From a virus (taxonomy: Duplodnaviria; Caudoviricetes), in IMG/VR virus record IMGVR_UViG_3300031555_004891: 64,000 nucleotides of DNA, one strand, 5' to 3'. The translations under genes and the position numbers were made by a program. Position 1 is the stretch's first letter. The number at the start of each line of letters is the position of its first letter. Under the pieces are notes generated by a model that saw only the letters and a program-made list of their open reading frames with translations, made no database searches and was not told where the DNA came from. Below are positions 37,251-64,000 of the stretch, piece by piece.

Positions 37251-37625
37251 ATGAACTCAATAGCCTTTCCAGAAATGTTTAGTTCTGCTAGTACAAATCT
37301 GGTATATGATAGAGAAGCTACTGCACAAAATCTGCTATTGCTTTTAAAATCGGATAAGACGAGTTTTTTCGGAGATCCATATTTTGGTACAACATTAAAA
37401 AGATTAATTTTTGAACAAAACAATACTGTGTTGCGAGATTTAGTTATAGATACTGTTTACTCGACTATTGCTACATATATGCCTTAGATAAAAGCAGATA
37501 GAAAAAATATAACAGTTACATCGGATGGAACAACACTTTATTGCAATATAAAAGCTACAAACATGATCGATTTTAATTTAGAAGACATGAATCTAGCTTT
37601 ATTTAATTTAGAGGAATTAGGATGA
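37251..37625 (+). CDS. Baseplate wedge protein gp25-like (TAG=Gln)
   Basis: DPYFGTTLKRLIFEQ motif; extends through TAG to TGA at 37623-37625. Confidence 0.82.
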
Positions 37626-40600
37626 AACATACAAATATAAACATCAATTCTTTATCTTACACAAATAAAGATTTTAGAAATGTCATGGAAGAGCTTTTAG
37701 CTCTAGTTCCTGAGCTTACTAGCAGATGGAATCCAAATGACTCTAATGAATCAGACCCTGGTGTAGCATTATTAAAACTTAAAGCATTTATTGCTGATAA
37801 ACTAAACTATAATATAGATAAAAATGTTTTAGAGAATTTTCCTACATCTGTCACTCAGAGAGGTAATGCTCAAAAACTTTATGACCTTTTAGGTTATGAC
37901 ATGCAGTGGTATAGATCAGCCACTGTTCCTGTTGTATTTAAGTATGTGCAAGGTGAAAATCTCGAAGAAATAAAAGAAAATTCGAGTGATATTTTATACA
38001 AAATACCTAGATTTACAACCTTGAAAGATGATACAGGCTCTATAGTCTTTACTCTTCTACAGGATGCTATTATAGAAAGTTCTGGAGAATCCACTACAGA
38101 TATAGAAGTTCTAGCTATGGAAGGACCTATACAATCTTACACAATAAATGGGCAAGAAAAAATTACAATACAGAATTTAGATTCTGATTATAGATTATAT
38201 TTTACAGAATCTATGGTTGCATAGAATGGTATATTTATTTCAAATGATCCTACTATGCAAGATTTATGGACTAGAGTATCAAACTTAGAGACATCAGGTT
38301 TAAATACTAAAATATATAAATTTGGTGTTTTACCTAACTCTAATACTTGCTACGTAGAATTTCCTCAAGACGCTGCTAATATTTTCGGTGGTGGTATTTA
38401 TATCAAATATATATTATCTACTGGTGCAGCTGGTAATATAAGTTTAGGAACACTTACAAAATTACAATATAGCTTGATGGCTAAGGGCGGTATTGATGGT
38501 GTTTATTATCTAAAAAGTGATGGTAGTTACAGTGCAAGTAGTGATGAGATTGATCTATCTTTATTTACTCAAGTCACTAATTATCAAAGCGCTACTAATG
38601 GTTCTAATCCAGAAACTTTAGAAGAAGCATATAGAAATTATAGACGTACTATTGGTACCTTCAATACTTTAGTAACTACAAAAGATTATGAGTCTGCTAT
38701 ATATAATTCTGGAGCAGTATCTAACGTCGTTGTTTCTGACAGAACAGATGATCATGAAAGATCCTATAAAGTAAAAACTTTTGATATTAATGGTAAGAGT
38801 GAGCGTCTAGTTAACGTTAATGTAGAAGATACAAGTAAAGTATTGATGAATGCGTTCAACTTAGTAGTATATGCTTTAGATAATGCTACGTCTGTAAGTA
38901 CTGCTGATAATTATAACACAACATTTAAAACAAAGAATGATACAATGCGTCTAGCTCAAAAATCAATAGATGATTGTAAAGCTATTTAGCATGATTGGAT
39001 AAATAATAGTTAGTAGACAACCTTCCTATATAAAAATCTATATGAATTAAGCGGTAAAATATTAACTTATCAAAAAATATCTTCTATAGAAGCTAAAGAA
39101 ATAGAGCAAAATGTACAAAAAGCTTTATATAAAAAGTATAATAGTAGAAATATAAATTTCGGGGAAGCTTTAGTTTACGAAGAAATAGTTAAAACAGTAA
39201 AATCTGCTGACCAACGTATAAAAGAATTTTTGTTAGATGAACCAACGATAAATACTTATAGCATGACCGCTGTAGAGAATGGTGGTAGCAATGAAGACTT
39301 GCAAGCATCTCCATTGTCAAGAGATCAAAAAATAGATATAATAGCTAAATCTATATTAGCAGGTGTAACACCATATTGTATATTTGACGACTCTGCTTCG
39401 TTAGATTTCTTTATGCAACCAGCTGAGAAGTATGCAGTTAATGCTGGAAAGGTTGAAAAAGTTACAAATACAATGTGTGATGCTGCTTCATCATATATTC
39501 AAAATATAGCTACAGTTACTACTGGTGTTAATATGAATGTAACAACTGGTGATAGAAAGTTGCTTAAAAATGAAACAGTACAGCTTTATGCACCAAATTT
39601 TGTTACTATAAAAACCTTATCCACATATTTATATGTCGCTTTTAAAACGCTTGATTCTAATAAAACAATATTAAAAAATAGCATCTATCAACTCAGAGAT
39701 AATGAATATGTATATGCTGCGGAAAACAAAAATGACCTTTTAAGTATGCTTGGTGTAGCTATAACTAATGGAACAACCGCAGGATTATCTACTTATACAT
39801 TTGGTCCAGGAAAAATAATTAAAACATCTTTTGATCTTCCAGCATATGGTGGAAATGAGTCAAACATAAAAAATCTTGAAACAACAAATACTATAGAAGT
39901 TTAGGAAGAAAATGCTGTTATATTAAACAATAAAGAAAAAGCAATATATGCTTGCTGGTCATTAAATGAGTCTGATAATGAGTTATTTAAATCAGATGAA
40001 ATCAAATATTTTTGTTACTCAGATGAAGAAAAAACTTCTAAGATAGATTTAAGGAAAGATGGTAATTATTATAAACTTGTGAAAGCAGCAAAAATTAATG
40101 GTGAAGATAAAGTTGCAGGATCAGTGATTGATAAATCATCAGTATACTGTTATCTATCTAGAATTTTAAAGAATGGTGAATATTTTATCTACACAGACTT
40201 TGGTAAATCATTCATTGCTCTATTAAGCTCTGGCACTAGATTAAAAATTCAAGGTTTAGTATCTAACTTAGAAAATAAAGACTGGACTTGCAACTTACCT
40301 GATATGTCAGATTTAAATTCTAATGGTGTTGCTGCAGATGTTACATGGAAACCTTTAGGTAAAGGTTATGATTTTTCTGTGCAAGAAATGCAAATAATAA
40401 CATTAGGTCAAGATGCTGTTTTAAGTTTTGATAATAAAGAAATTTTAAATCCAGATTATGATCCTGATGATGAAGATTCAGAGGAATATATTATTGCAGG
40501 GATGACTCTAAGTAATACACCAATAATGTTAACAGCAGATCTTCAAAAGTATTTTAAATATAAAGTAGATCAATTTGAAGATTCTTATTTAAGATTATCA

Positions 40601-41638
40601 ACTATTGATTTAGATAATAGCTCTAGTGTAGATACAGATAATTATTCGTGGTATGCTTTTTGTAGTTTACAATTAATATGTTCGAGTGATTCCCCTCAAA
40701 CCTTACAGAAAGATCAATATGTAATTTTTACATTAAGTGGTAATACCAATTATGCTGCGGGGGCTGGAAACTCAATTAAAACTAATATACCTGTTGCATT
40801 AACTGGCGGTTCGAATCAATCAGCAGAACTTTTACTAAGCGATGGTACGGTATCTAAGTCTTTGTGTGCAAGTATTTATAAAAATCCTTCAGATGATATA
40901 TTTTGGCATAAAGCGAATTCTAGTGATACTTCTACTAATGTAGAATCAGATTCTGTTTCGGAATCATATTCTAATGATACTGTTAGTTTAAGTATGCAAA
41001 ATAAAGCAACAACAGATGTAAAGCATAAATTTTTATATGAAGCATGTGTAAGTCCCACTTTTTGTAAATCATTTCTTCCTGTTTTGATACAGTCAAGTAT
41101 AACAGATTCTGATGCAAAAATTACAATTAAAGTTAAAACAGGTACAGAAACAGGCACATGGTCATTTATTAAAGAGGAGCTTTCTACAAGTGACGCTAAA
41201 GACTTAAAGCATTCTGATAATGTCATTTTTCTTAGGTTACCTGATGAAATTTTTTCAAAGAAAGATCCAGATTACATTTATGCTTAGAAAAATCTACAAA
41301 TATCAGTTACTGATGTAGCTAAAGATGAGATCATTAATGTAACATTATATAATCCAAATAAGTTTATAGATTATAGTGATATAGTAGCTGATTATGAGTT
41401 AGATGGTGGTGCTGGCAATGCGGTTTTAACTAGAATAAAGCAATTGACACAAATAAATAAAGATGATCTACCACCTTTTGATTTTACATATAGAGTAGAT
41501 GAAGGTATCGCTATAAATGATCCAACAGATCCAGAAAGCTTTTTTGATACAAATCACATCAAAAATAAGTTTGTTATATCTCAAATAAACACTTCAACAA
41601 TCTCAAATATAAGTGTAGCTAAACAAAGTAGGAAATAA
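37622..41638 (+). CDS. Large baseplate wedge protein, gp6/J-like (1338 aa, TAG=Gln)
   Basis: Motifs YTNKDF, ESDPGVALL, ATNGSNPETLEE, LVTTKDYE. Five fragments share one frame, including a tandem TAG-TAG near 39011. Confidence 0.82.
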
Positions 41639-43876: not shown

Positions 43877-44203
43877 ATGAAACATTCGAATAAGAAAGTA
43901 GATTACATAATTTGTCCGCACTGTGGAGCAGAATATTTACCTAGTGAAATATATTATCCAGATAAATTTTTAGGTAAGCCTCATGATATAGATAAAGTAA
44001 ATAGTGGTAAAATAGATAATTTCTTAGGAAAGTCTATGGATTTAGAAGAAAGTTATCAATGTGATTTTTGTGATACAAAATTTAGAGTGACTGCAAAAAT
44101 TCAATTCAAAGTTGAGCAAGTTTCTAAGTATGATATGTCAAAAGCATATGTGACACCATTATTTGAAGAAAAATTGACTCTAGAAGAAGGGATAGCTGAA
44201 TAA
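43877..44203 (+). CDS. Zn-ribbon protein
   Basis: CPHC...CDFC; AGGAG RBS. Confidence 0.7.
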   Translation: MKHSNKKVDYIICPHCGAEYLPSEIYYPDKFLGKPHDIDKVNSGKIDNFLGKSMDLEESYQCDFCDTKFRVTAKIQFKVEQVSKYDMSKAYVTPLFEEKLTLEEGIAE

Positions 44204-46965
44204 TGATAAAAATATCAGAGCAAACAGCTAAAAAAGTTCCTGGACTAACAGCATTAGTAGTAGAAAGTCCATACAACCCACTAGTTGTAGATGTTCTGAA
44301 AAACGCTCAAGGATCAGATTATGATGCTAAAACAAAGTAGTGGGAAGTTCCAATAACTAACCTTTCTTATTTATTAGATCATTTTTCTATAATAGATGAT
44401 ATAGAATTAAATTTACTTGAAGATAAAAAAGCTAAAAATATAATTTTTTCACAAAAACCTGATGAGCCTTTTTAGATGTTTAAGCATCAAGCAGAAGCTG
44501 TAGAGTTTGGATTAAATAATCCTAAATGGTTATTACTTGATGCTCCCGGGCTTGGTAAAGCGCTTCCTTTAGATACACCTGTTTTAACACCTAATGGATT
44601 TAAACCTATCGATGCTATACATGCTGGTGATATAGTTTTCGATGATAAGGGAAACCCATGTAAAGTTATTGAAGAATTTTATCACGAATCTTTAGACATG
44701 TATAAATTAGATTTTACAACAAAAGATTCTATAATTTGCTGCAAAGATCATTTATGGTAGGTTAGATACAATAAAGGTGTCTGGGATAAGTGTGATAGAA
44801 AATATCATCTAACAGAGTTCAATGAAGCTCGACCTACTAGCTGGCTTATTGAAAATGATAATTGGAAAAAGAATTGTCTAAGAATACCATTTTGTGAGCC
44901 TATAAAATTTCCTAAAAATGAATTGCCTATTGATCCATATCTTTTGGGCTGCTTAATTGGGGATGGATCTTTTAGAAAATATATAAGTTTAACTTCGAGC
45001 GATCAGTTTATTATTGATCAATGTATACATAGCTTAGAGCAGCTTGAGGGAGATGCATTAAAAATAAGGCTTGATGGTAAATATAGTTATATATTTTCAA
45101 CAAAATCAAAGAAACCCTCTAAATTAAAGCATGAGTTAGATAAGCTTGGTTTATTAAATCATTTGTCTTACACAAAATTTATTCCTGATATTTATAAACA
45201 TAGTTCTGTAGAAGATCGTATAGCTCTGTTGCAAGGATTAATGGACACTGATGGTACAGTAAGTTCAGTAAAAACTTATAAGGGAAAATTATCTAATAAA
45301 GCATGTTTCGGAACCTCTTCTAAACAATTGCGGTACGATTTTGAATTCTTAATACAATCTTTAGGTGGTTGGTGTTCAACACGAGAGTTTACAGCTTCTT
45401 ATCGAGACGCATCTGGTTAGAAAAAATAGTGTGCTACTCATTATACAATTTCTATACATTTACCTGATAACTCTATCTTATTTAGATTGCCTAGGAAGAA
45501 AAATTTAGTGTCTAAAAGATATAATAAGCCTAGAAGAAAAATAAAGAATATTACATATGTTGGTAAGCAACCTGGAAAATGCATATCTGTAGACAGTCCA
45601 TCACATTGTTATCTAACAAAAAATTGCATTGTTACGCATAACACCTTATCATTGATTCGGCTAGCAGAAGAATTACATAATCAAGGAAAGATAGAGCATT
45701 GCTTAATAGTTTGTGGTATAAATACGCTTAAAAGAAACTGGCAAAAAGAAATATAGAAATTTAGCACATTAAGCTCTAGAATAATTGGTCAATACATAAG
45801 TTCAAAAGGTAAAGTTTATACCAGATCTGTTAAAGATAGGGTCGAAGAGCTAAAAAATCCTTTAGAAGAGTTTTTTATTATTATAAATGTGGAATCACTC
45901 AGAGATGATGATATAGTAAAAGCTATAAATAAAGGTAAGAATAAATTTGATATGATAGTTGTTGATGAGATTCATACCATGAAATCTCCGACCAGCTCTC
46001 AAGGAAAAAATTTACTAAAAATAAATAAAGCTAAGTATCAAGTAGGTGCTACTGGAACATTATTACTTAATGATCCTTTAGATACTTATATGGCTCTAAA
46101 ATGGATAGGTGCAGAACATTCTACATTAACTAAATTTAAGTATTATTACTGCGAATATGGTGGTCCTTTTGGAAATATGCTAGTTGGATTTAAAAATATG
46201 GATCTACTTAAATACCAACTTGAGCAAGTTTCTTTGAGAAGAAAAAAAGATTTACTAAATCTTCCAGATAAGAATATAATAGATGAGTTTGTTGATATGG
46301 AAACAGCTCAAAGTAATTTTTATGAAAATATAAAGAAAGGTATAGTAGATCAAGTAGATAAAGTAAAAATGTCTACAGCTAATTTGCTAGCTATGGTTAT
46401 AAGATTACGTCAAGCAGCAGAATGTCCAAATGTGTTAACTACAGAGAACATACCATCTGCTAAAATTGAACGTTGTATAGATTTAGCTAAACAAATATTA
46501 TCTGATCCAGATGAGAAAGTAGTTATTTTTAGTTGCTTTAAAGAATCAATAAATTTTATATATAAATAGTTAGCAGAGTTTAATCCATTGCTATGCACTG
46601 GAGATATTCCAGATGATATTATATCAAATAATGTCGATATGTTTCAAAATGATTCTGAGCATAGAGTTATAGTATGTACTGGACAAAAAATGGGAACTGG
46701 TATAACTCTAAATAGAGCGCATTATGCTATTTTTATAAATACACCATGGACAGCAGGTGTGCAAGAGCAATGGGAAGATCGTATATATAGAATCGGTACA
46801 AAGCAACCAGTATTTATATATAGATTATGGGTTAAAGACACTATAGATGAGCGAGTTTTAGACATTCTAAATACAAAAGGTGCCTTGAGTGATTATGTCA
46901 TAGATGACGAAATGACAACTCAGCAATTAGCTATATTAAGACAATATATAGAAGAATTAAGATAA
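44203..46965 (+). CDS. SNF2-family helicase containing an intein (920 aa precursor, TAG=Gln)
   Basis: LLDAPGLGK^T Walker A, DEIH, ATGT, GTGITLNRA, QWEDRIYRIG. Five fragments share one frame. Confidence 0.88.
44560..45642 (+). mobile_element. Class 3 intein with LAGLIDADG homing endonuclease (361 aa)
   Basis: Begins ALPLDTPVLT (Ala1). Block B DHLW, block F KCISV, ends VTHN before Thr. Endonuclease motifs LLGCLIGDG and LLQGLMDTDG. Confidence 0.88.
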
Positions 46966-53173: not shown

Positions 53174-55924
53174 ATGGTAGATTCATTGTGGGGTGATGAT
53201 TTCATTATAAAGAAAACCCCTAAAGAAGCTAAAAAGATAATTAAAAAAATATCTGAGCCAAAAGATTCTTCTTCTGTTGTAAAAAAAGCCGTAAAGTCCA
53301 AAAAACTATCCGTCCATGAAAAGTTAGCTATTATTACCGAGAATGTTAAAAAGATTCTCGGTAGATACGCTGACAACACTCAAGTGATAAGGACACGGCA
53401 AGAGTTAACTGATTATATCGACATAGCTATAAAAAATAATGTAATTGCGGTCGATACTGAAACGAATAACAGTCTTGACCCCATCACATGTAAATTGATG
53501 GGTCCCTGTTTATATACACCAGGTTTAAAGAATGCTTATGTACCATTAAATCATGTTAACCCAGATACTTTAGAAAGATTTGATTGGCAATTAACGGAAG
53601 AAGATGTAAAAGAAGAATTAAGTAGACTTACAGATACTAAAATAATAATGCACAATGGTAAGTTCGACTATTCTGTAATAAAATGCACCACAGGTGTTGA
53701 GTTAAGCATTTATTGGGATACAATGATTGGTGCAAAAGTTTTAGATGAGAATGAGAGGTCAGCTGGTTTGAAACAGCAGTATATCGAAAAGATAGATCCA
53801 TCTATTGAAAAATACTCTATAGATCACTTATTTGAAGATATAGAGTATGCGATGGTTGACCCAGAAATATTTGCTTTATATGCTGCAACAGACTCTTATA
53901 TGACTTATAAGCTTTATGAGTGGCAAAAAGATAAATTTGAGATACCTGGTCACCAGCGTTTATATAGCCTTTTTAGAAATGTAGAGATTCCTGTAATAAT
54001 TCCTATAGCTGAAATGGAAATGACTGGTGTAGAAGTAGATCAAGAATATGCTGAGTTGTTAAGTAAAAAGTATCATAAGAAATTAGATACAATCGATCTT
54101 AAAATAGCTGCAGAGTTAGCTACATTAAAAGATAAAATAGCTGAGTGGCGTTTAACAGAAGATGCTAATTTCCACCCGATAGCAACAAAACCTAACAAAT
54201 ATGGTGAGTATTTAGAGCAAAAATCTAAATCAGAGCAATTAGAAGATCCTATAAACTTAGCCAGTCCAACACAGTTAGCTATATTATTCTATGATATATT
54301 AAAATGTCCACCTGTAGATAAAAAGAAACCTAGAGGAACAGGTGAAGCAGAATTAAAAGCTATAGAGCAGAAATTAAAACTTCCTATTTGTAGCCTTTTA
54401 GTAGAAAGACGTGAATGGGTAAAATTGATAACTACTTACATAGACGTAATTCCGGAACTAGCAAAAAGATGGCCTGATGGTAGAGTTCGTACTCACTTTA
54501 ACCAATACGGGGCAGCTACGGGTCGTATGAGTTCGAGTGATCCGCTGAACCTGTAGAATATACCATCACATAATAAAGAAATCCGTATGTTATTTAGAGC
54601 TGCTGATAATTGTGTATTAGTTGGTAGCGACTTCAGTTTATAAATCTGTTGGCTGAAGTAAAACTTACTTAAACGGGGAACTCTCATTGAGACAATCCCG
54701 TGCCAAATCAATCTTAAGATTGATAGTGCGTAGAGACTATCGAAAAGGTAGGCGTAAGCTGAGTAACTGAGTAGAGTAGGCTTCAAGCGAAGTCGAAACA
54801 GTAAGCAACTAAAAAGTTGAAGAGTTAGTCCGACACTTCTAGTGATAGAAGAGAGGTGTAGCGAGCCTCAAAACAAGAAGCAACAAGAACCTAGATTACT
54901 CTCACAATACTCAGGTGATGAGAATATGATTAATGCTTATAAAGCAGGTAAAGACCTTTATGCTACTATTGCCTGTGGTGTATATAAAAATACGTATTGG
55001 GATAACATGGAGCATTGGGAAGATGGATCACCTAATCCTGAAGGTAAGAAACGTAGAGGTAATTGTAAGAGCTTACTTTTGGGGATAATGTATGGACGTG
55101 GTGTAGCTTCTATAGCTGAACAAATTAAAGGTACAGTAGAAGAAGCACAAAAAATTATCGATGATTTTTACACTGGATTTCCAAAAGTAAAAGAATGGAC
55201 TGATAAAACTCAAGCAGATGCTAAAAAGACTGGTTATGTAGAAGATTTATGGGGTAGAAGACGTAGACTTACAGATCTTATGCTTCCTAAATATACTATT
55301 AAAGACCTTAATGCTGCTAAACTTGATTTTAATCCTATCTTACACGCAGAAGGAAAGTTCTCGAAAAAAGAAAATCCTTCTATACAGAAATATAAAGCAG
55401 CACTTGAAAAAGTTCGCGGTAGAAAAGAATATGAAAAGCTAAAAGAGCAAGCATTGAAAGAAAATATAGAATTGCATGATAACACAGGTTTTATAGCTCA
55501 GGCTGAGAGACAATGTGTTAATGCTAGAATTCAGGGTGGTGCTGCTTCCATGACTAAAGTAGCTGTTATAAAGCTGTATAATGATAAAATTCTCAGAGAT
55601 TTAGGATTTAAGTTAAATATAGCCGTGCATGATGAGTTAATTGGTGAGTGCCCTAAAGAAAATGCAGATGCAGTAGCTGATAGACTTTGTGCTATAATGA
55701 AAGGTGCTGCTGAAGACGTTTGTGATGTACCATTTAAATGTGACCCTACAGTTGAGCATTGTTGGTATTTCTCAGATTTCTGCGATACTGTTCAAAAAGA
55801 ATTTAAAGAAGTTTTGAAAAAGTATAATAATGATTGGAATTCAGCATTTAATTATATGGTAGAAACTCATGAAGAATCAACAATTGATCAATTACATGAG
55901 CTTTTAGATGAAATAGCTGTATAA
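53174..55924 (+). CDS. polA: Family A DNA polymerase, join(53174..54637,54881..55924), 835 aa, TAG=Gln
   Basis: Exonuclease motifs DTET, HNGKFD, YAATD. TGRMSSSDPLNL-Q(TAG)-NIP. Motif A DFS^QQEPR is restored on splicing; motif B KSLLLGIMYG; motif C VHDE. Confidence 0.92.
54638..54880 (+). mobile_element. Group I intron (IA-like, 243 nt, no ORF)
   Basis: The 5' exon ends in U and pairs with GCTGAAGT (54652-54659, P1). TGTTG pairs with 3' exon CAACA (P10). P3 CTTACT/AGTAAG, P7 GACTA/TAGTC, terminal G. An in-frame TAA is present if unspliced. Confidence 0.88.
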
Positions 55925-55934
55925 ATAAATAACA

Positions 55935-55988
55935 ATGCGAAGTTCACACTCGAATATCCTTCGCATAATAAAATAAAACTTTAAGGAG
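55935..55988 (+). promoter_or_regulatory. preQ1-I-like riboswitch
   Basis: Stem ATGCGAAG/CTTCGCAT, loop starting UUC and ending AUC, A-rich tail ending AAAACU next to the SD AAGGAG. Directly upstream of a VUT-family transporter. Confidence 0.7.
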
Positions 55989-55997
55989 ATTTTTAAA

Positions 55998-56777
55998 ATG
56001 AGTAAAGTAAAAAATTGGTTTAAGTAGGAATGGAATGAGATCAAAACACTTTTAAGTAATGTTAACCCTTTAGTTATGACCTTTTTTATTCTAGGTGTTG
56101 TGGCTATGAATTTGCTAGCTAATAAGTCTATTGATTTAAGTTTTCTTCCTGGAAATGATGTTAATAACGGTGAGTTTGGTTGGTTAGCTTTAGATTGTGG
56201 CTTTTTAATCTCATGGTTATGCTTTTTTTCAATGGACAATATAGCTAGACGTTTCGGTCCTAAAGCATCAACCCAAATGACCATTGTTGCTATAGTTGTT
56301 AATTTAATTGTTTGTGGAATATTTCTGCTAGCTGGTATAATTCCTGGAACATGGGGTGAAAGTTATGTAGAAAATGGTGCGATTATAAATACTGCTTTAG
56401 ATAACACAATATCTGGAAGTTGGTATGTATTAATGGGATCAACTGTAGCATTTATTTGCTCAGCAATAGTACATGGGTTAGCTAGTACAGCTATAAGCAA
56501 AATCTTTAAGGATAAAGAGACACTTAAAGCATACGCAGTATGTAGTGCAGTAGGAACTAGCTTAGGCCAATTTGTAGATAATATGATTTTTGCTTTAATT
56601 GTAAGCTTAAACTTTTTTGGTTGGAATATTTTACAATGCATAATGTGTTCAATTACTGGTATGATATTTGAGTTTCTAATGAGTGTAATTTTTGTTCCTA
56701 TTGGTCATAAGATATATAAGAATGATCAAGAGCGAGCAAATAGAAAAGATGAGGTAGGATTCGAATGCGAGTTTTAA
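55998..56777 (+). CDS. yhhQ: VUT-family (YhhQ/COG1738) queuosine-precursor transporter (259 aa, TAG=Gln at codon 10)
   Basis: Multi-TM protein with MNLLANK, DNIARRFG, GSTVAF, SLGQFVDNMIF motifs. Confidence 0.8.
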
Positions 56778-57424
56778 TTACAGGAACATCTAAAGGAATA
56801 GGAAAAGCTATAGCTGAAAAATTTATTTATGAGCATGCTGATTGGGAAATCATTGGCTTTGATAGACTAGATTCTACTATAGATAAACCTAATTACAAAC
56901 ATTATAAAGTAGATGTTAGAGATGTAGAAAATTACCCAGATATTTCTAATATAAATATTATAATTAACAACGCTGGAACTCAGAATGAAGATGATATTAA
57001 CATTAACTTAAAGGGTGCGATTTCTATTACCGAGCGTTATGGAATCCAACCTGGAATTAAAAGTATCTTAATGATTGGGTCAGCGAGTGCACATACTGGT
57101 GATGAATTCCCTCAATACGTTGCTTCGAAAGGTGGTTTAATAGCTTACACAAAAAATGTAGCTAGAAGAATTGCTAAATATGGGGCAACCTGTAACAGCT
57201 TAGACTTTGGAGGTGTTTTAACCGAGTTAAATAAACCTGTTATGGAAAACAAAGAATGCTGGGATAAGATAATGGAAGTAACAGCATTAAAGCGTTGGAT
57301 GGAACCAGAAGAGACAGCTGATTGGGCTTATTTTGTTACTGTAATCAACAAAGGTATGACTGCGCAAACGCTTCTTATTGATAATGGGGAAGCTTCGATT
57401 GTAAACAATTTCCAATGGTGTTAA
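56765..57424 (+). CDS. Short-chain dehydrogenase/reductase (SDR)
   Basis: TGTSKGIG, NNAG, catalytic S and YVASK. Overlaps the transporter stop. Confidence 0.88.
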   Translation: MRVLITGTSKGIGKAIAEKFIYEHADWEIIGFDRLDSTIDKPNYKHYKVDVRDVENYPDISNINIIINNAGTQNEDDININLKGAISITERYGIQPGIKSILMIGSASAHTGDEFPQYVASKGGLIAYTKNVARRIAKYGATCNSLDFGGVLTELNKPVMENKECWDKIMEVTALKRWMEPEETADWAYFVTVINKGMTAQTLLIDNGEASIVNNFQWC

Positions 57425-57431
57425 AAAAATT

Positions 57432-57482
57432 AGTCAACTAGGTTAAAATCTAGTTGACTTTTCTTTTCAAATTTATTATAAT
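57432..57482 (+). promoter_or_regulatory. Terminator hairpin fused to a sigma70-type promoter (TTGACT-17-TATAAT)
   Basis: AGTCAACTAG/CTAGTTGACT hairpin; -35 at 57454-57459, -10 at 57477-57482. Confidence 0.75.
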
Positions 57483-62029: not shown

Positions 62030-62455
62030 ATGCAATTATCTAATGAAATAAAAGAAAAAATAAAAACAGAATACACAGAGTGGTTTAATTCTCAATATGG
62101 TGATAAAACATTAGAAGAGAGAAGAAAATTAGGTGCTTTTTTCACACCGCCTGAGCTAACCATTAAAATGATAGAGAAATTCGATTCTATAGAAAACAAA
62201 ACTATTCTAGACCCTACATGTGGTACAGGTAATTTATTAGCAGGTTGCATAATAGCAGGTGCTAATCCAGAAATGATTTATGGAAACGAATATGATCCAA
62301 CATTTGTACAGTTATGTAGAGATAGATTGAAAAAATTAGGTGTTCCTGAGTCTAATATACATGAGGGTGATGCACTTAATCCAGAAGCATTAAAGAGAAG
62401 TAATTTCACAGATAACTGGAATAAAGATGTTGGTTGTAAAACAGAATTATGGTAA
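62030..62455 (+). CDS. Stand-alone SAM-binding half of an N6-adenine methyltransferase
   Basis: GAFFTPPEL (motif X), ILDPTCGTGNLL (I), IYGNEYD (II), GDAL (III). Ends before any NPPY. Confidence 0.8.
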   Translation: MQLSNEIKEKIKTEYTEWFNSQYGDKTLEERRKLGAFFTPPELTIKMIEKFDSIENKTILDPTCGTGNLLAGCIIAGANPEMIYGNEYDPTFVQLCRDRLKKLGVPESNIHEGDALNPEALKRSNFTDNWNKDVGCKTELW

Positions 62456-62464
62456 AAAGATATT

Positions 62465-62623
62465 ATGAAAATTTGGAAAATGAAAGATTGTTTTTATTCA
62501 GATATCATAAAAGAATTAAATAATTTAGAAAAGAAACATGCTGTTGTTAGAGAAATTACAGCTAGTAATGAACACTGGTTTACAATATTTTACACTATAG
62601 AAGATAAGGTAGAAGAAGAATGA
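62465..62623 (+). CDS. Small hypothetical protein (52 aa)
   Basis: Open frame with ATGA coupling to the GNAT gene. Confidence 0.5.
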   Translation: MKIWKMKDCFYSDIIKELNNLEKKHAVVREITASNEHWFTIFYTIEDKVEEE

Positions 62624-63102
62624 GATTTTGTAATGTATGTGATTGCACAGATGCTAAAAATGATTGCAAGACATGTAAATATAGAGAAGAATGTGATTAT
62701 GTTTGGGTAACAGAAATTTGGAAAAAGAATCAGAAGCTCTTAACGCCATTAAACCCAGGTTGGGTTAAGCCTGATTTTAAAAATAATCACGTAGTAACAG
62801 TTAGTGGTAAATATGATTTTTGTGTTTTTAACGTACCAAAAAAGACTGAGACTATAACTATAAATGACATTTGTGTTGATGAGGCTGGAAGAGGTCAGGG
62901 TTTATCTAAAAAACTTATTTATGGGTTAATGGAAAAATATGATCGAGATATTATAGCTAAATGCGTAAAAGATAGCTCAGCAGAAGATTTTTGGTCTCAT
63001 ATGGGCGAAAAGATAGCAGAAGAGCCTGGTAAGCAACGTCCTTTATCTGTGTATAAGGTACGTAATGAAAAAATGAGTATGAGAAAACAGGAATTATTTT
63101 AA
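62620..63102 (+). CDS. GNAT-family acetyltransferase with Cys-rich N-terminus
   Basis: ICVDEAGRGQGLSKKLI acetyl-CoA loop; AEDFWSHMG. Confidence 0.8.
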   Translation: MRFCNVCDCTDAKNDCKTCKYREECDYVWVTEIWKKNQKLLTPLNPGWVKPDFKNNHVVTVSGKYDFCVFNVPKKTETITINDICVDEAGRGQGLSKKLIYGLMEKYDRDIIAKCVKDSSAEDFWSHMGEKIAEEPGKQRPLSVYKVRNEKMSMRKQELF

Positions 63103-63172
63103 TAATTTTATTAAATATGAAAGCACTGTTTTTGTATAAATATAATGAAACATAGACATTTTGGAGGAAGTA

Positions 63173-64000
63173 ATGGAAAAACTAATCAATCAAGATTGGA
63201 CTAATCCTTTTACTAATTGTAAAATAGGTGAAGATTATTATGGAATTATAGCTGCTGGCGAAGGTGTTAAAAATGTAAAAATGCCTGATGGGACTATTCT
63301 TGATGCTAGCGATGTTAAGAGAGATTTGGGTTATCCACAACTTTTTGCTTGGAATTTAGAAGGAAAAGCCTTGTTGGAATGGGTTGAGTATTTAGATAAA
63401 AATCCTGATTGTCCCTGTAAGTTAGTTGTTGACTCAGGTGCGTATTCTATGTGGAGCCGTGGAAAAGAATTTGATATGGATGAGTATATCAATTTCTTAA
63501 ACAGTAATGATGTTATAGAAAAAGCTTTTTGGGTAGCAGAAGCTGACGTTATCCCTGGAAGTATGGGTGTAGATCCAACAGAAGAAGAAAGAGCAGCAGC
63601 ACCTGAAAAAAGCTGGGAAAACTTCTTATATATGGTAGATAGAGTTAAAATTCCTAAGAAAATTGTACCTATTTTCCATCAAGGTGAAGATATCAAGCAT
63701 TTGAGACGAATGTTAGCTTATAGATATCCAGATGGTGATTTCATTCCATATATTGGAATTTCTCCTCGAAATGATGTCCATGTTAATGAAAAATCAAAAT
63801 GGTATGAGTATATTTGGAAAGTTATTTATGAAGATTGTGCAGCTTTAGGTCGGGATATTCCATTGACTCATAACTTTGGTATGACTACTATAGCTCTCAT
63901 GGAGCAGTATCCTAGTTACACATCAGATTCGACTTCATGGATTAGAAGCGCATCTTTTGGTAATATAATGATTATAGTAAATGGTAAAATAAAAACTGTA
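63173..64000 (+). CDS. dpdA: TGT-fold 7-deazaguanine DNA transglycosylase (DpdA-like), 3'-truncated
   Basis: Absent from the ORF track because it has no stop in the window. GGAGG RBS; motifs VVDSGAYS, DVIPG, VPIFHQGE, YIGIS, THNFGMT, SDSTSW. Confidence 0.82.
   Translation, partial: MEKLINQDWTNPFTNCKIGEDYYGIIAAGEGVKNVKMPDGTILDASDVKRDLGYPQLFAWNLEGKALLEWVEYLDKNPDCPCKLVVDSGAYSMWSRGKEFDMDEYINFLNSNDVIEKAFWVAEADVIPGSMGVDPTEEERAAAPEKSWENFLYMVDRVKIPKKIVPIFHQGEDIKHLRRMLAYRYPDGDFIPYIGISPRNDVHVNEKSKWYEYIWKVIYEDCAALGRDIPLTHNFGMTTIALMEQYPSYTSDSTSWIRSASFGNIMIIVNGKIKTV

Follow-up and report, generated by a model that had tools for sequence, protein, structure and literature searches.

A divergent preQ1-I-like leader precedes the yhhQ transporter gene of a TAG-recoded phage

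Introduction

The preQ1-I riboswitches of type I are distinguished by UU atop the 5′ strand of helix P1, UC before the 3′ strand of P1 and a conserved C in the tail (PMC11625349). In the aptamer of Carnobacterium antarcticum the key recognition bases for two stacked preQ1 molecules are U6, U7, U16, C17, A30 and C31; the first ligand is also contacted by G5, which pairs with C18 to give the floor of the pocket (PMC8752633). Helix P2 of type I is largely non-canonical (PMC8752633), and sequence complementarity is therefore a poor test for the pseudoknot. A type I aptamer represses translation with the Shine-Dalgarno sequence (SD) up to 10 nt away (PMC10018353). The type III leader of Escherichia coli yhhQ (PMC10622847, PMC11625349) shares with the leader described here the yhhQ gene family, UU after P1 and, as proposed for the present leader, an SD that is taken into the fold. 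It differs in having AC rather than UC before the P1 3′ strand, a short pyrimidine-rich loop, Watson-Crick pairing with AAGG and a single ligand.

Phage-borne sensing leaders beside auxiliary genes are known from the c-di-GMP-I riboswitches of Clostridium difficile prophages and the glutamine riboswitches of cyanophages and pelagiphages (PMC5473149, PMC9004378), which differ from the present leader in class and in ligand. In a 2017 survey of phage genomes, computational searches found glutamine aptamers only, and c-di-GMP-I was the sole earlier report (PMC5473149). In the literature searched, coverage of which is incomplete, no paper was found that describes preQ1-family riboswitches in phages or the expanded form reported below. 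YhhQ is the known importer of preQ0 and preQ1 (PMC5372724, cited through PMC6884629) and is encoded by some phages, where it presumably feeds DpdA (PMC6884629).

The yhhQ operon and its phage genome

The DNA analyzed here, referred to as the window, is a single stretch of 64,000 nt. Within it, comparison with PHROGs identified tail fiber, tail sheath and portal genes together with a weak terminase match. All long open reading frames (ORFs) lie on the + strand, and their tight tiling requires that TAG be a sense codon (TAG=Q), as exemplified by the ORFs at 37622-41638 (1338 aa) and 44203-46965 (920 aa); no TAG is present in several early or replication ORFs. From this tiling and the PHROGs matches it follows that the window belongs to a TAG-recoded, myovirus-like phage, in agreement with the phage origin proposed for the leader in an earlier, sequence-only reading of this DNA. 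No tRNA gene was found in the 64,000-nt window. The phage stems from animal gut samples, and DNA nearly identical to the window is present in fecal and ruminant gut metagenomes.

The transporter that this reading had placed behind the leader is YhhQ/Vut_1 (Table 1). The TIGR00697 model also matches the protein, under its cut-off (E 1.8e-7). Codon 10 of yhhQ is an in-frame TAG (56025-56027) that is read as sense, and the same TAG=Q decoding is equally required by a homolog that is 98% identical to the YhhQ of the window. Because the following short-chain dehydrogenase (SDR) gene overlaps the yhhQ stop, it belongs to the yhhQ transcription unit, which ends at a strong intrinsic terminator.

Approximately 6 kb downstream of yhhQ begins an ORF that matches phrog_887, a queuine tRNA-ribosyltransferase family, and runs off the window. 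This DpdA-like ORF is recognized by PHROGs alone, with no match in Pfam or NCBIfam. DpdA inserts preQ0 into DNA as its base, and the DpdA-like gene product is likely the consumer of the 7-deazaguanine imported by YhhQ. The ORF is directly preceded by a GNAT-like ORF (62620-63102, weak Pfam matches), just upstream of which lies a split N6-adenine methyltransferase (62030-62455, Pfam N6_Mtase).

The gene immediately upstream of the leader is a family A DNA polymerase gene (polA) that is split into two ORFs (53174-54643 and 54842-55924) by a group I intron (54595-54852, + strand; Rfam RF00028, 61.8 bits against a cut-off of 50, E 1.6e-15). The intron contains no homing-endonuclease ORF; in relatives a NUMOD3 endonuclease gene adjoins polA.

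Table 1. Positions of the leader elements and of the associated genes in the window
Feature	Position	Strand	Remarks
Possible extended -10-like element TGTATAAAT	55918-55926	+	Overlaps the polA stop; weak promoter candidate by inference
P1 5′ strand AUGCGAAG	55935-55942	+	Read from sequence, RNAfold and covariation
Loop UUCACACUCGAAUAUC, 16 nt	55943-55958	+	Begins with UUC (55943-55945), ends with AUC (55956-55958)
P1 3′ strand CUUCGCAU	55959-55966	+	Pairs with 55935-55942
A-rich L3-like tail AAUAAAAUAAAA (12 nt), then C	55967-55978, C55979	+	AAAA at 55975-55978
Shine-Dalgarno AAGGAG	55983-55988	+	9 nt before the ATG; presumed expression platform
yhhQ/Vut_1, queuosine-precursor transporter family	55998-56777	+	Pfam PF02592, E 1.1e-15, 58.8 bits
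Short-chain dehydrogenase (SDR) gene	56765-57424	+	Pfam adh_short, adh_short_C2
Intrinsic terminator of the yhhQ-SDR unit	57432-57469	+	12-bp stem and U-tract; terminator scan
DpdA-like TGT-fold gene, running off the window	63161-64000	+	phrog_887, E 2.2e-42

Anatomy of the leader

The spacer between the polA stop (55924) and the yhhQ ATG (55998-56000) comprises 73 nt and contains a hairpin followed by an A-rich tail (Table 1). Its stem, P1, consists of 8 bp and is closed by a G-C pair (55942-55959), and C55958 stands immediately 5′ of the P1 3′ strand. These features, which the sequence-only reading had picked out at 55935-55988 together with the UUC...AUC loop and its specificity C, are all present, as are the A-rich tail with AAAAC and U and the nearby SD AAGGAG. 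Three U residues (55980-55982) separate C55979 from AAGG, as against a single U in the Rfam consensus (CUAAGG). The sequence signature GTTC-N9-11-ATCC-N12-26-AAAAC has one match in the window, which is the leader itself, against an expectation of 0.03 from shuffled sequences.

The hairpin is the minimum-energy structure predicted by RNAfold, with a modest fold z-score of -2.09; alone, it has a predicted energy of -8.9 kcal/mol, and the SD is unpaired at 43-81% in the ligand-free secondary-structure ensemble. RNAfold also predicts a mini-hairpin within the loop (UUC:GAA), which was rejected since it is not conserved in relatives. The pairing that had been suggested between the loop triplet CUC (55949-55951) and GAG of the SD (55986-55988) is possible as far as complementarity goes, yet its 3 bp do not exceed what base composition alone provides (shuffle p 0.87). 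No full promoter before the leader was detected by a sigma-70 scan; in relatives, -10-like words similar to that of the window occur 5-12 nt 5′ of P1.

Conservation of the helix and of the unpaired bases

Loci for comparison were collected through the YhhQ protein and through the polymerase from IMG/VR, metagenomes, GTDB genomes and exact-protein look-ups. The YhhQ of the window has hundreds of close protein relatives; a tblastn search with it against 50,697 deposited phage genomes returned no match, and blastn with the region returned only distant polA matches. Phage relatives with the gene order polA-yhhQ carry in the spacer a hairpin of the same shape made up of other stem letters.

In a first alignment of the form of leader found in the window (16 sequences), the helix is 98% paired and five of seven pairs show compensatory changes. 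A later, model-guided alignment comprises 22 leaders (21 distinct) from phages and Lachnospiraceae. Among the 21 distinct leaders, P1 is paired in 98.0% of cells, compared with 73% in shuffles, and compensatory changes on both sides affect 6 of the 7 modelled P1 pairs. The covariation score is 0.652 versus 0.187 in shuffles, none of 500 of which reaches 0.652, and sliding the helix out of register lowers the paired fraction to 37-54%. RNAalifold independently predicts the same P1 helix. While the letters of the stem drift, its closing G-C pair is invariant in all 22 aligned leaders, as are the words GUUC, AUCC and AAAA; a C follows AAAA in 18 of the 22 and is missing in four. Within this group P1 ranges from 7 to 9 bp, the loop from 15 to 16 nt and L3 from 12 to 15 nt, and relative to the ordinary loop 3-4 nt are inserted before AUC. 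Thus the leader of the window is almost certainly a selected, structured cis-element.

The same form occurs in chromosomes of Lachnospiraceae (Blautia sp. OF03-15BH, Fusicatenibacter faecihominis and Butyrivibrio) and is therefore not specific to phages. The phage lineage carries the riboswitch-like leader together with the yhhQ-SDR operon.

A covariance model of this leader form, designated R1, was run over the window and the collected loci (~1.6 Mb, both strands). All R1 matches of 53-73 bits across the ~1.6 Mb lie immediately 5′ of a yhhQ start, and the window contains a single strong match (55936-55987, 63.7 bits). As a negative control, 80 viral loci matching only the loop pattern were scored; one of the 80 scores with R1, and that one is a known yhhQ leader. 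With one real leader among the 80 viral loci fetched, the fixed loop pattern is too loose to serve as a search query.

These data bear on the alternative that the element is a conserved hairpin without a sensing function, such as a protein-binding operator, an RNase processing or stability element, or a remnant of a polA terminator. Such a reading would account for the absence of an Rfam match (see below), for the stability of the hairpin on its own (-8.9 kcal/mol) and for its start only 10 nt past the polA stop. Against this, the invariance of unpaired GUUC, AUCC and AAAA beside a drifting stem is the pattern of a tertiary pocket, and the same words fall on the pocket positions of preQ1-I. 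The element also tracks yhhQ whatever the upstream gene, which is polA in phages and a PLP-enzyme or choline-binding gene in bacteria. A terminator was rejected because the stem lacks a U-tract behind it and a scan for terminators gave no match there. A non-sensing hairpin is accordingly very improbable.

Comparison with the Rfam PreQ1 family

The Rfam PreQ1 model (RF00522) spans 45 positions and has a gathering score of 39 bits. At the gathering score, no PreQ1 match was found in the whole window. Because the whole-window Rfam scan also missed the group I intron, its filters evidently lose real matches; with permissive filters and E<=10, RF00522 likewise gave no match in the 201 nt from 55850 to 56050, where the permissive Rfam scan produced only chance-level matches (RAGATH-18, Yfr10 and others; E 0.28-6.4). 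Nor did RF00522 match any of three further leaders of this form (L043, L109 and L054) at E<=3. The leader of the window falls below the gathering threshold and so is not a member of the family by score. The sequence-only reading had named this covariance-model search as its check, and by that reading's own standard the absence of a match counts against the preQ1-I assignment.

The leader also exceeds the compact dimensions of preQ1-I, with 8 bp in P1 versus ~5 bp, 16 nt in the loop versus ~11-13 nt and 12 nt in L3 versus ~6-8 nt. The RF00522 model is weak for yhhQ leaders in general. In six leaders of orthologous operons (L082, L079, L097, L059, L066 and L055), it produces full-length alignments at the expected place with scores of 22.4-27.5 bits. 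As these lie below 39 bits, standard annotation would leave all six unmarked.

Leaders of orthologous yhhQ-SDR operons

In Clostridia, Bacilli, Coriobacteriia and phages alike, yhhQ and the SDR gene form a conserved operon, which is found behind every type of leader. Ordinary-size preQ1-I leaders occupy the same position before yhhQ-SDR operons in other genomes, either of the UC kind (UUCGUGACCAUC...AAAACUAGGG) or of the AC kind (UUCCUUG...AAC, CAAGGAG); the element of the window is not among the latter. The occurrence of the same operon under recognizable preQ1-I leaders elsewhere is the best available argument that the form found in the window responds to the same signal.

Coupling of the SDR gene to yhhQ behind preQ1-type leaders was observed in the window and at ten further loci (L043, L044, L073, L050, L105, L122, L104, L166, L173 and L176). 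No queuosine or 7-deazaguanine enzyme of the SDR type was found in the literature searched, and the SDR is a candidate for a new 7-deazaguanine salvage or conversion enzyme.

Other leader forms were observed among the collected loci. In many IMG/VR phage contigs a second uncatalogued form lies ~60-100 nt before yhhQ (L049, L063, L091, L095, L098, L128, L136, L144, L155, L157-L161, L163 and L165). It has a stem of 5-9 bp whose letters differ between contigs, a loop of 19-21 nt that mostly begins with UUUUGUAA and has C as its last base, and, ahead of the SD, a tail rich in A. Rfam searches of four such contigs (three loci at the gathering score and the whole record of L136 with RF00522) gave no PreQ1 match, and R1 scores several of these leaders, at a maximum of 33 bits.

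Tandem aptamers of the window's form are present at L002 (5133-5345) and also at L004, L167 and L168. In L002 an intrinsic terminator comes after the first aptamer (AGGG / UUCGGCCUCUACAUC / CCCU); then follow a -10-like TGTATAAT and a further aptamer that is joined to the yhhQ SD. As read from its sequence, this tandem is a pair of predicted transcriptional and translational platforms in series. The use of one aptamer with an additional platform that acts on transcription is characteristic of riboswitches.

Leaders resembling preQ1-I also precede a radical-SAM-like gene at three loci from other phage contigs (L028 4931-4990, L030 4465-4525 and L040 4931-4991), with a 9-bp P1, an 11-nt loop UUUUCCUAAUC, a tail ending in AAAAC and the SD AGGAGG. 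The gene has a weak match, below the cut-off, to the archaeosine enzyme RaSEA (TIGR01210, 1.3e-10), which suggests that preQ1-I-like leaders also control phage genes for 7-deazaguanine modification.

Relationship to preQ1-I riboswitches of type I

The leader of the window can be mapped one to one onto the C. antarcticum aptamer. The pair G55942-C55959 corresponds to the floor pair, U55943 and U55944 to U6 and U7, C55945 to the type I C8, U55957 to U16, C55958 to the specificity base C17, A55978 to A30 and C55979 to C31. The invariant words of the alignment match positions given in upper case in the Rfam PreQ1 consensus (GGUUCG...UCCC...AAAAAACUAAG). As in type I, UU directly follows the P1 5′ strand, UC directly precedes its 3′ strand, and L3 is A-rich with C, U/A and the SD after it; a conserved G-C pair closes the covarying P1, as in preQ1-I generally. 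The gene directly downstream, Vut_1/YhhQ, also places the element where preQ1-I riboswitches are located, in the 5′ leader of a gene for queuosine synthesis or salvage.

Common to type I (RF00522; C. antarcticum) and the present leader are thus the G-C-closed P1, UU(C) after its 5′ strand and UC before its 3′ strand, the A-rich L3 ending in AAAA and C with the SD just downstream, the association with genes for Q precursors including COG1738/yhhQ and, probably, action as a translational OFF switch. The two differ in the length of P1 (~5 bp in type I, 8 bp here), of the loop (12 versus 16 nt) and of L3 (~8 versus 12 nt), in the 3 nt between the tail C and AAGG of the window, in the lack of an Rfam score for the window and in the location of the present element in a phage genome.

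The leader therefore bears the type I signature, within an RNA whose structure is conserved across relatives, and the preQ1-I layout recognized by the sequence-only reading holds, including its suggestion of a variant with longer loop and tail: the comparison gives 15-16 nt and 12-15 nt, respectively. Common ancestry of this leader with preQ1-I riboswitches is very likely. The best explanation ties the element to the class I preQ1 riboswitches, of which it would be a divergent member or a close offshoot, with type I as the most similar type. The primary description of the three preQ1-I type consensus models is reportedly that of McCown in 2014, and this three-type description may already cover some of these leader sequences.

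Proposed mode of regulation

The leader is probably a divergent, expanded, type-I-like preQ1-I riboswitch that lowers translation of YhhQ when preQ1 or preQ0 is abundant. The identity and binding of the ligand, the pseudoknot, the gating of the ribosome-binding site and the OFF direction are what we infer for the leader of the window. The 8-bp, G-C-closed P1 would form, and UUC, AUC, the last adenines of the tail and the C would make up a pocket for a 7-deazaguanine, either preQ1 or its precursor preQ0. Upon binding of the base, the tail would dock along P1 and C55979 would close the pocket, giving by analogy with type I a compact H-type pseudoknot. The bound fold would end 4 nt from the SD AAGGAG, and pyrimidines of the loop may also pair with the SD. 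In the bound state fewer ribosomes would load on yhhQ and on the translationally coupled SDR gene; when the base is scarce, the SD would be free and the importer made. For the phage, import of the precursor would be matched to the need of a DpdA-type DNA-modification enzyme.

Given that P1 is stable alone (-8.9 kcal/mol) and that the SD is 43-81% unpaired, the default state should be ON. Since a type I aptamer represses translation with an SD up to 10 nt away, direct pairing with the SD is not required, and repression at spacings of <=10 nt fits the 4-nt gap of this leader. Complementarity between loop and SD is not significant by the shuffle test in the window nor in most relatives. Longer pairing of 5-6 bp is possible in some relatives, namely CUUUAA:UUAAAG in L176 (p 0.007) and CCUUA:UAAGG in L175. 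The scaling of L3 length with P1 length was also considered as a geometric argument for the pseudoknot and was dropped (Spearman rho 0.16, p 0.28).

The opposite wiring is conceivable, in which UCCUU (55957-55961) pairs with AAGGA of the SD in the ligand-free state, and the ligand locks P1 and the pocket and thereby frees the SD. UCCUU is perfectly complementary to AAGGA, and UCCU is invariant in the window's form. However, the alternative helix reaches only -1.7 kcal/mol (-4.7 with the best remainder) versus -8.9 for P1 alone, and P1 should therefore form with or without ligand. Furthermore, even before any ligand binds, the ensemble leaves the SD for the most part unpaired, and the feedback logic of an importer favors OFF. 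An ON switch is thus extremely unlikely.

A different ligand for the same fold family presents another alternative, in which the expanded loop reshapes the pocket for a guanine-like compound of the YhhQ-SDR pair. This compound could be preQ0 alone, queuine, a further derivative of 7-deazaguanine, or a substrate or product of the SDR. The form is a coherent and separately conserved subtype, with the 3-4 nt loop insertion and a longer P1 and L3; the Rfam model cannot align it, and it always accompanies the transporter and an SDR. Variants with altered specificity are moreover well documented for the guanine, FMN and guanidine riboswitch classes. Nevertheless, the leader retains the specificity C together with the U residues that flank it and has no substitution at any pocket base known to determine specificity, and ordinary-size preQ1-I leaders control yhhQ-SDR elsewhere, arguing for the same signal. 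A change of ligand is therefore doubtful. In its more specific version, a distinct, uncatalogued subtype of the preQ1-I fold that Lachnospiraceae share with their TAG-recoded phages would sense through its enlarged pocket a 7-deazaguanine other than preQ1, for example preQ0 or a compound made or used by the co-transcribed SDR; this too appears unlikely. With non-preQ1 sensing the phage would carry a dedicated sensor of its own DNA-hypermodification precursor.

Implications

At a cut-off of 39 bits, entire sets of yhhQ leaders from gut Firmicutes and from the phages of these bacteria escape the standard Rfam PreQ1 model, and both the diversity of preQ1-I and its distribution among phages are therefore underestimated. 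The conserved unit of riboswitch, yhhQ and SDR marks the SDR as a candidate enzyme of 7-deazaguanine salvage. Metabolite riboswitches are considered rare in phages (PMC5473149), and in the present case selection has kept a preQ1-type leader before an importer in several phage lineages. The importer probably feeds a DpdA-type DNA modification, and the leader would then constitute RNA-level feedback on an anti-restriction pathway.
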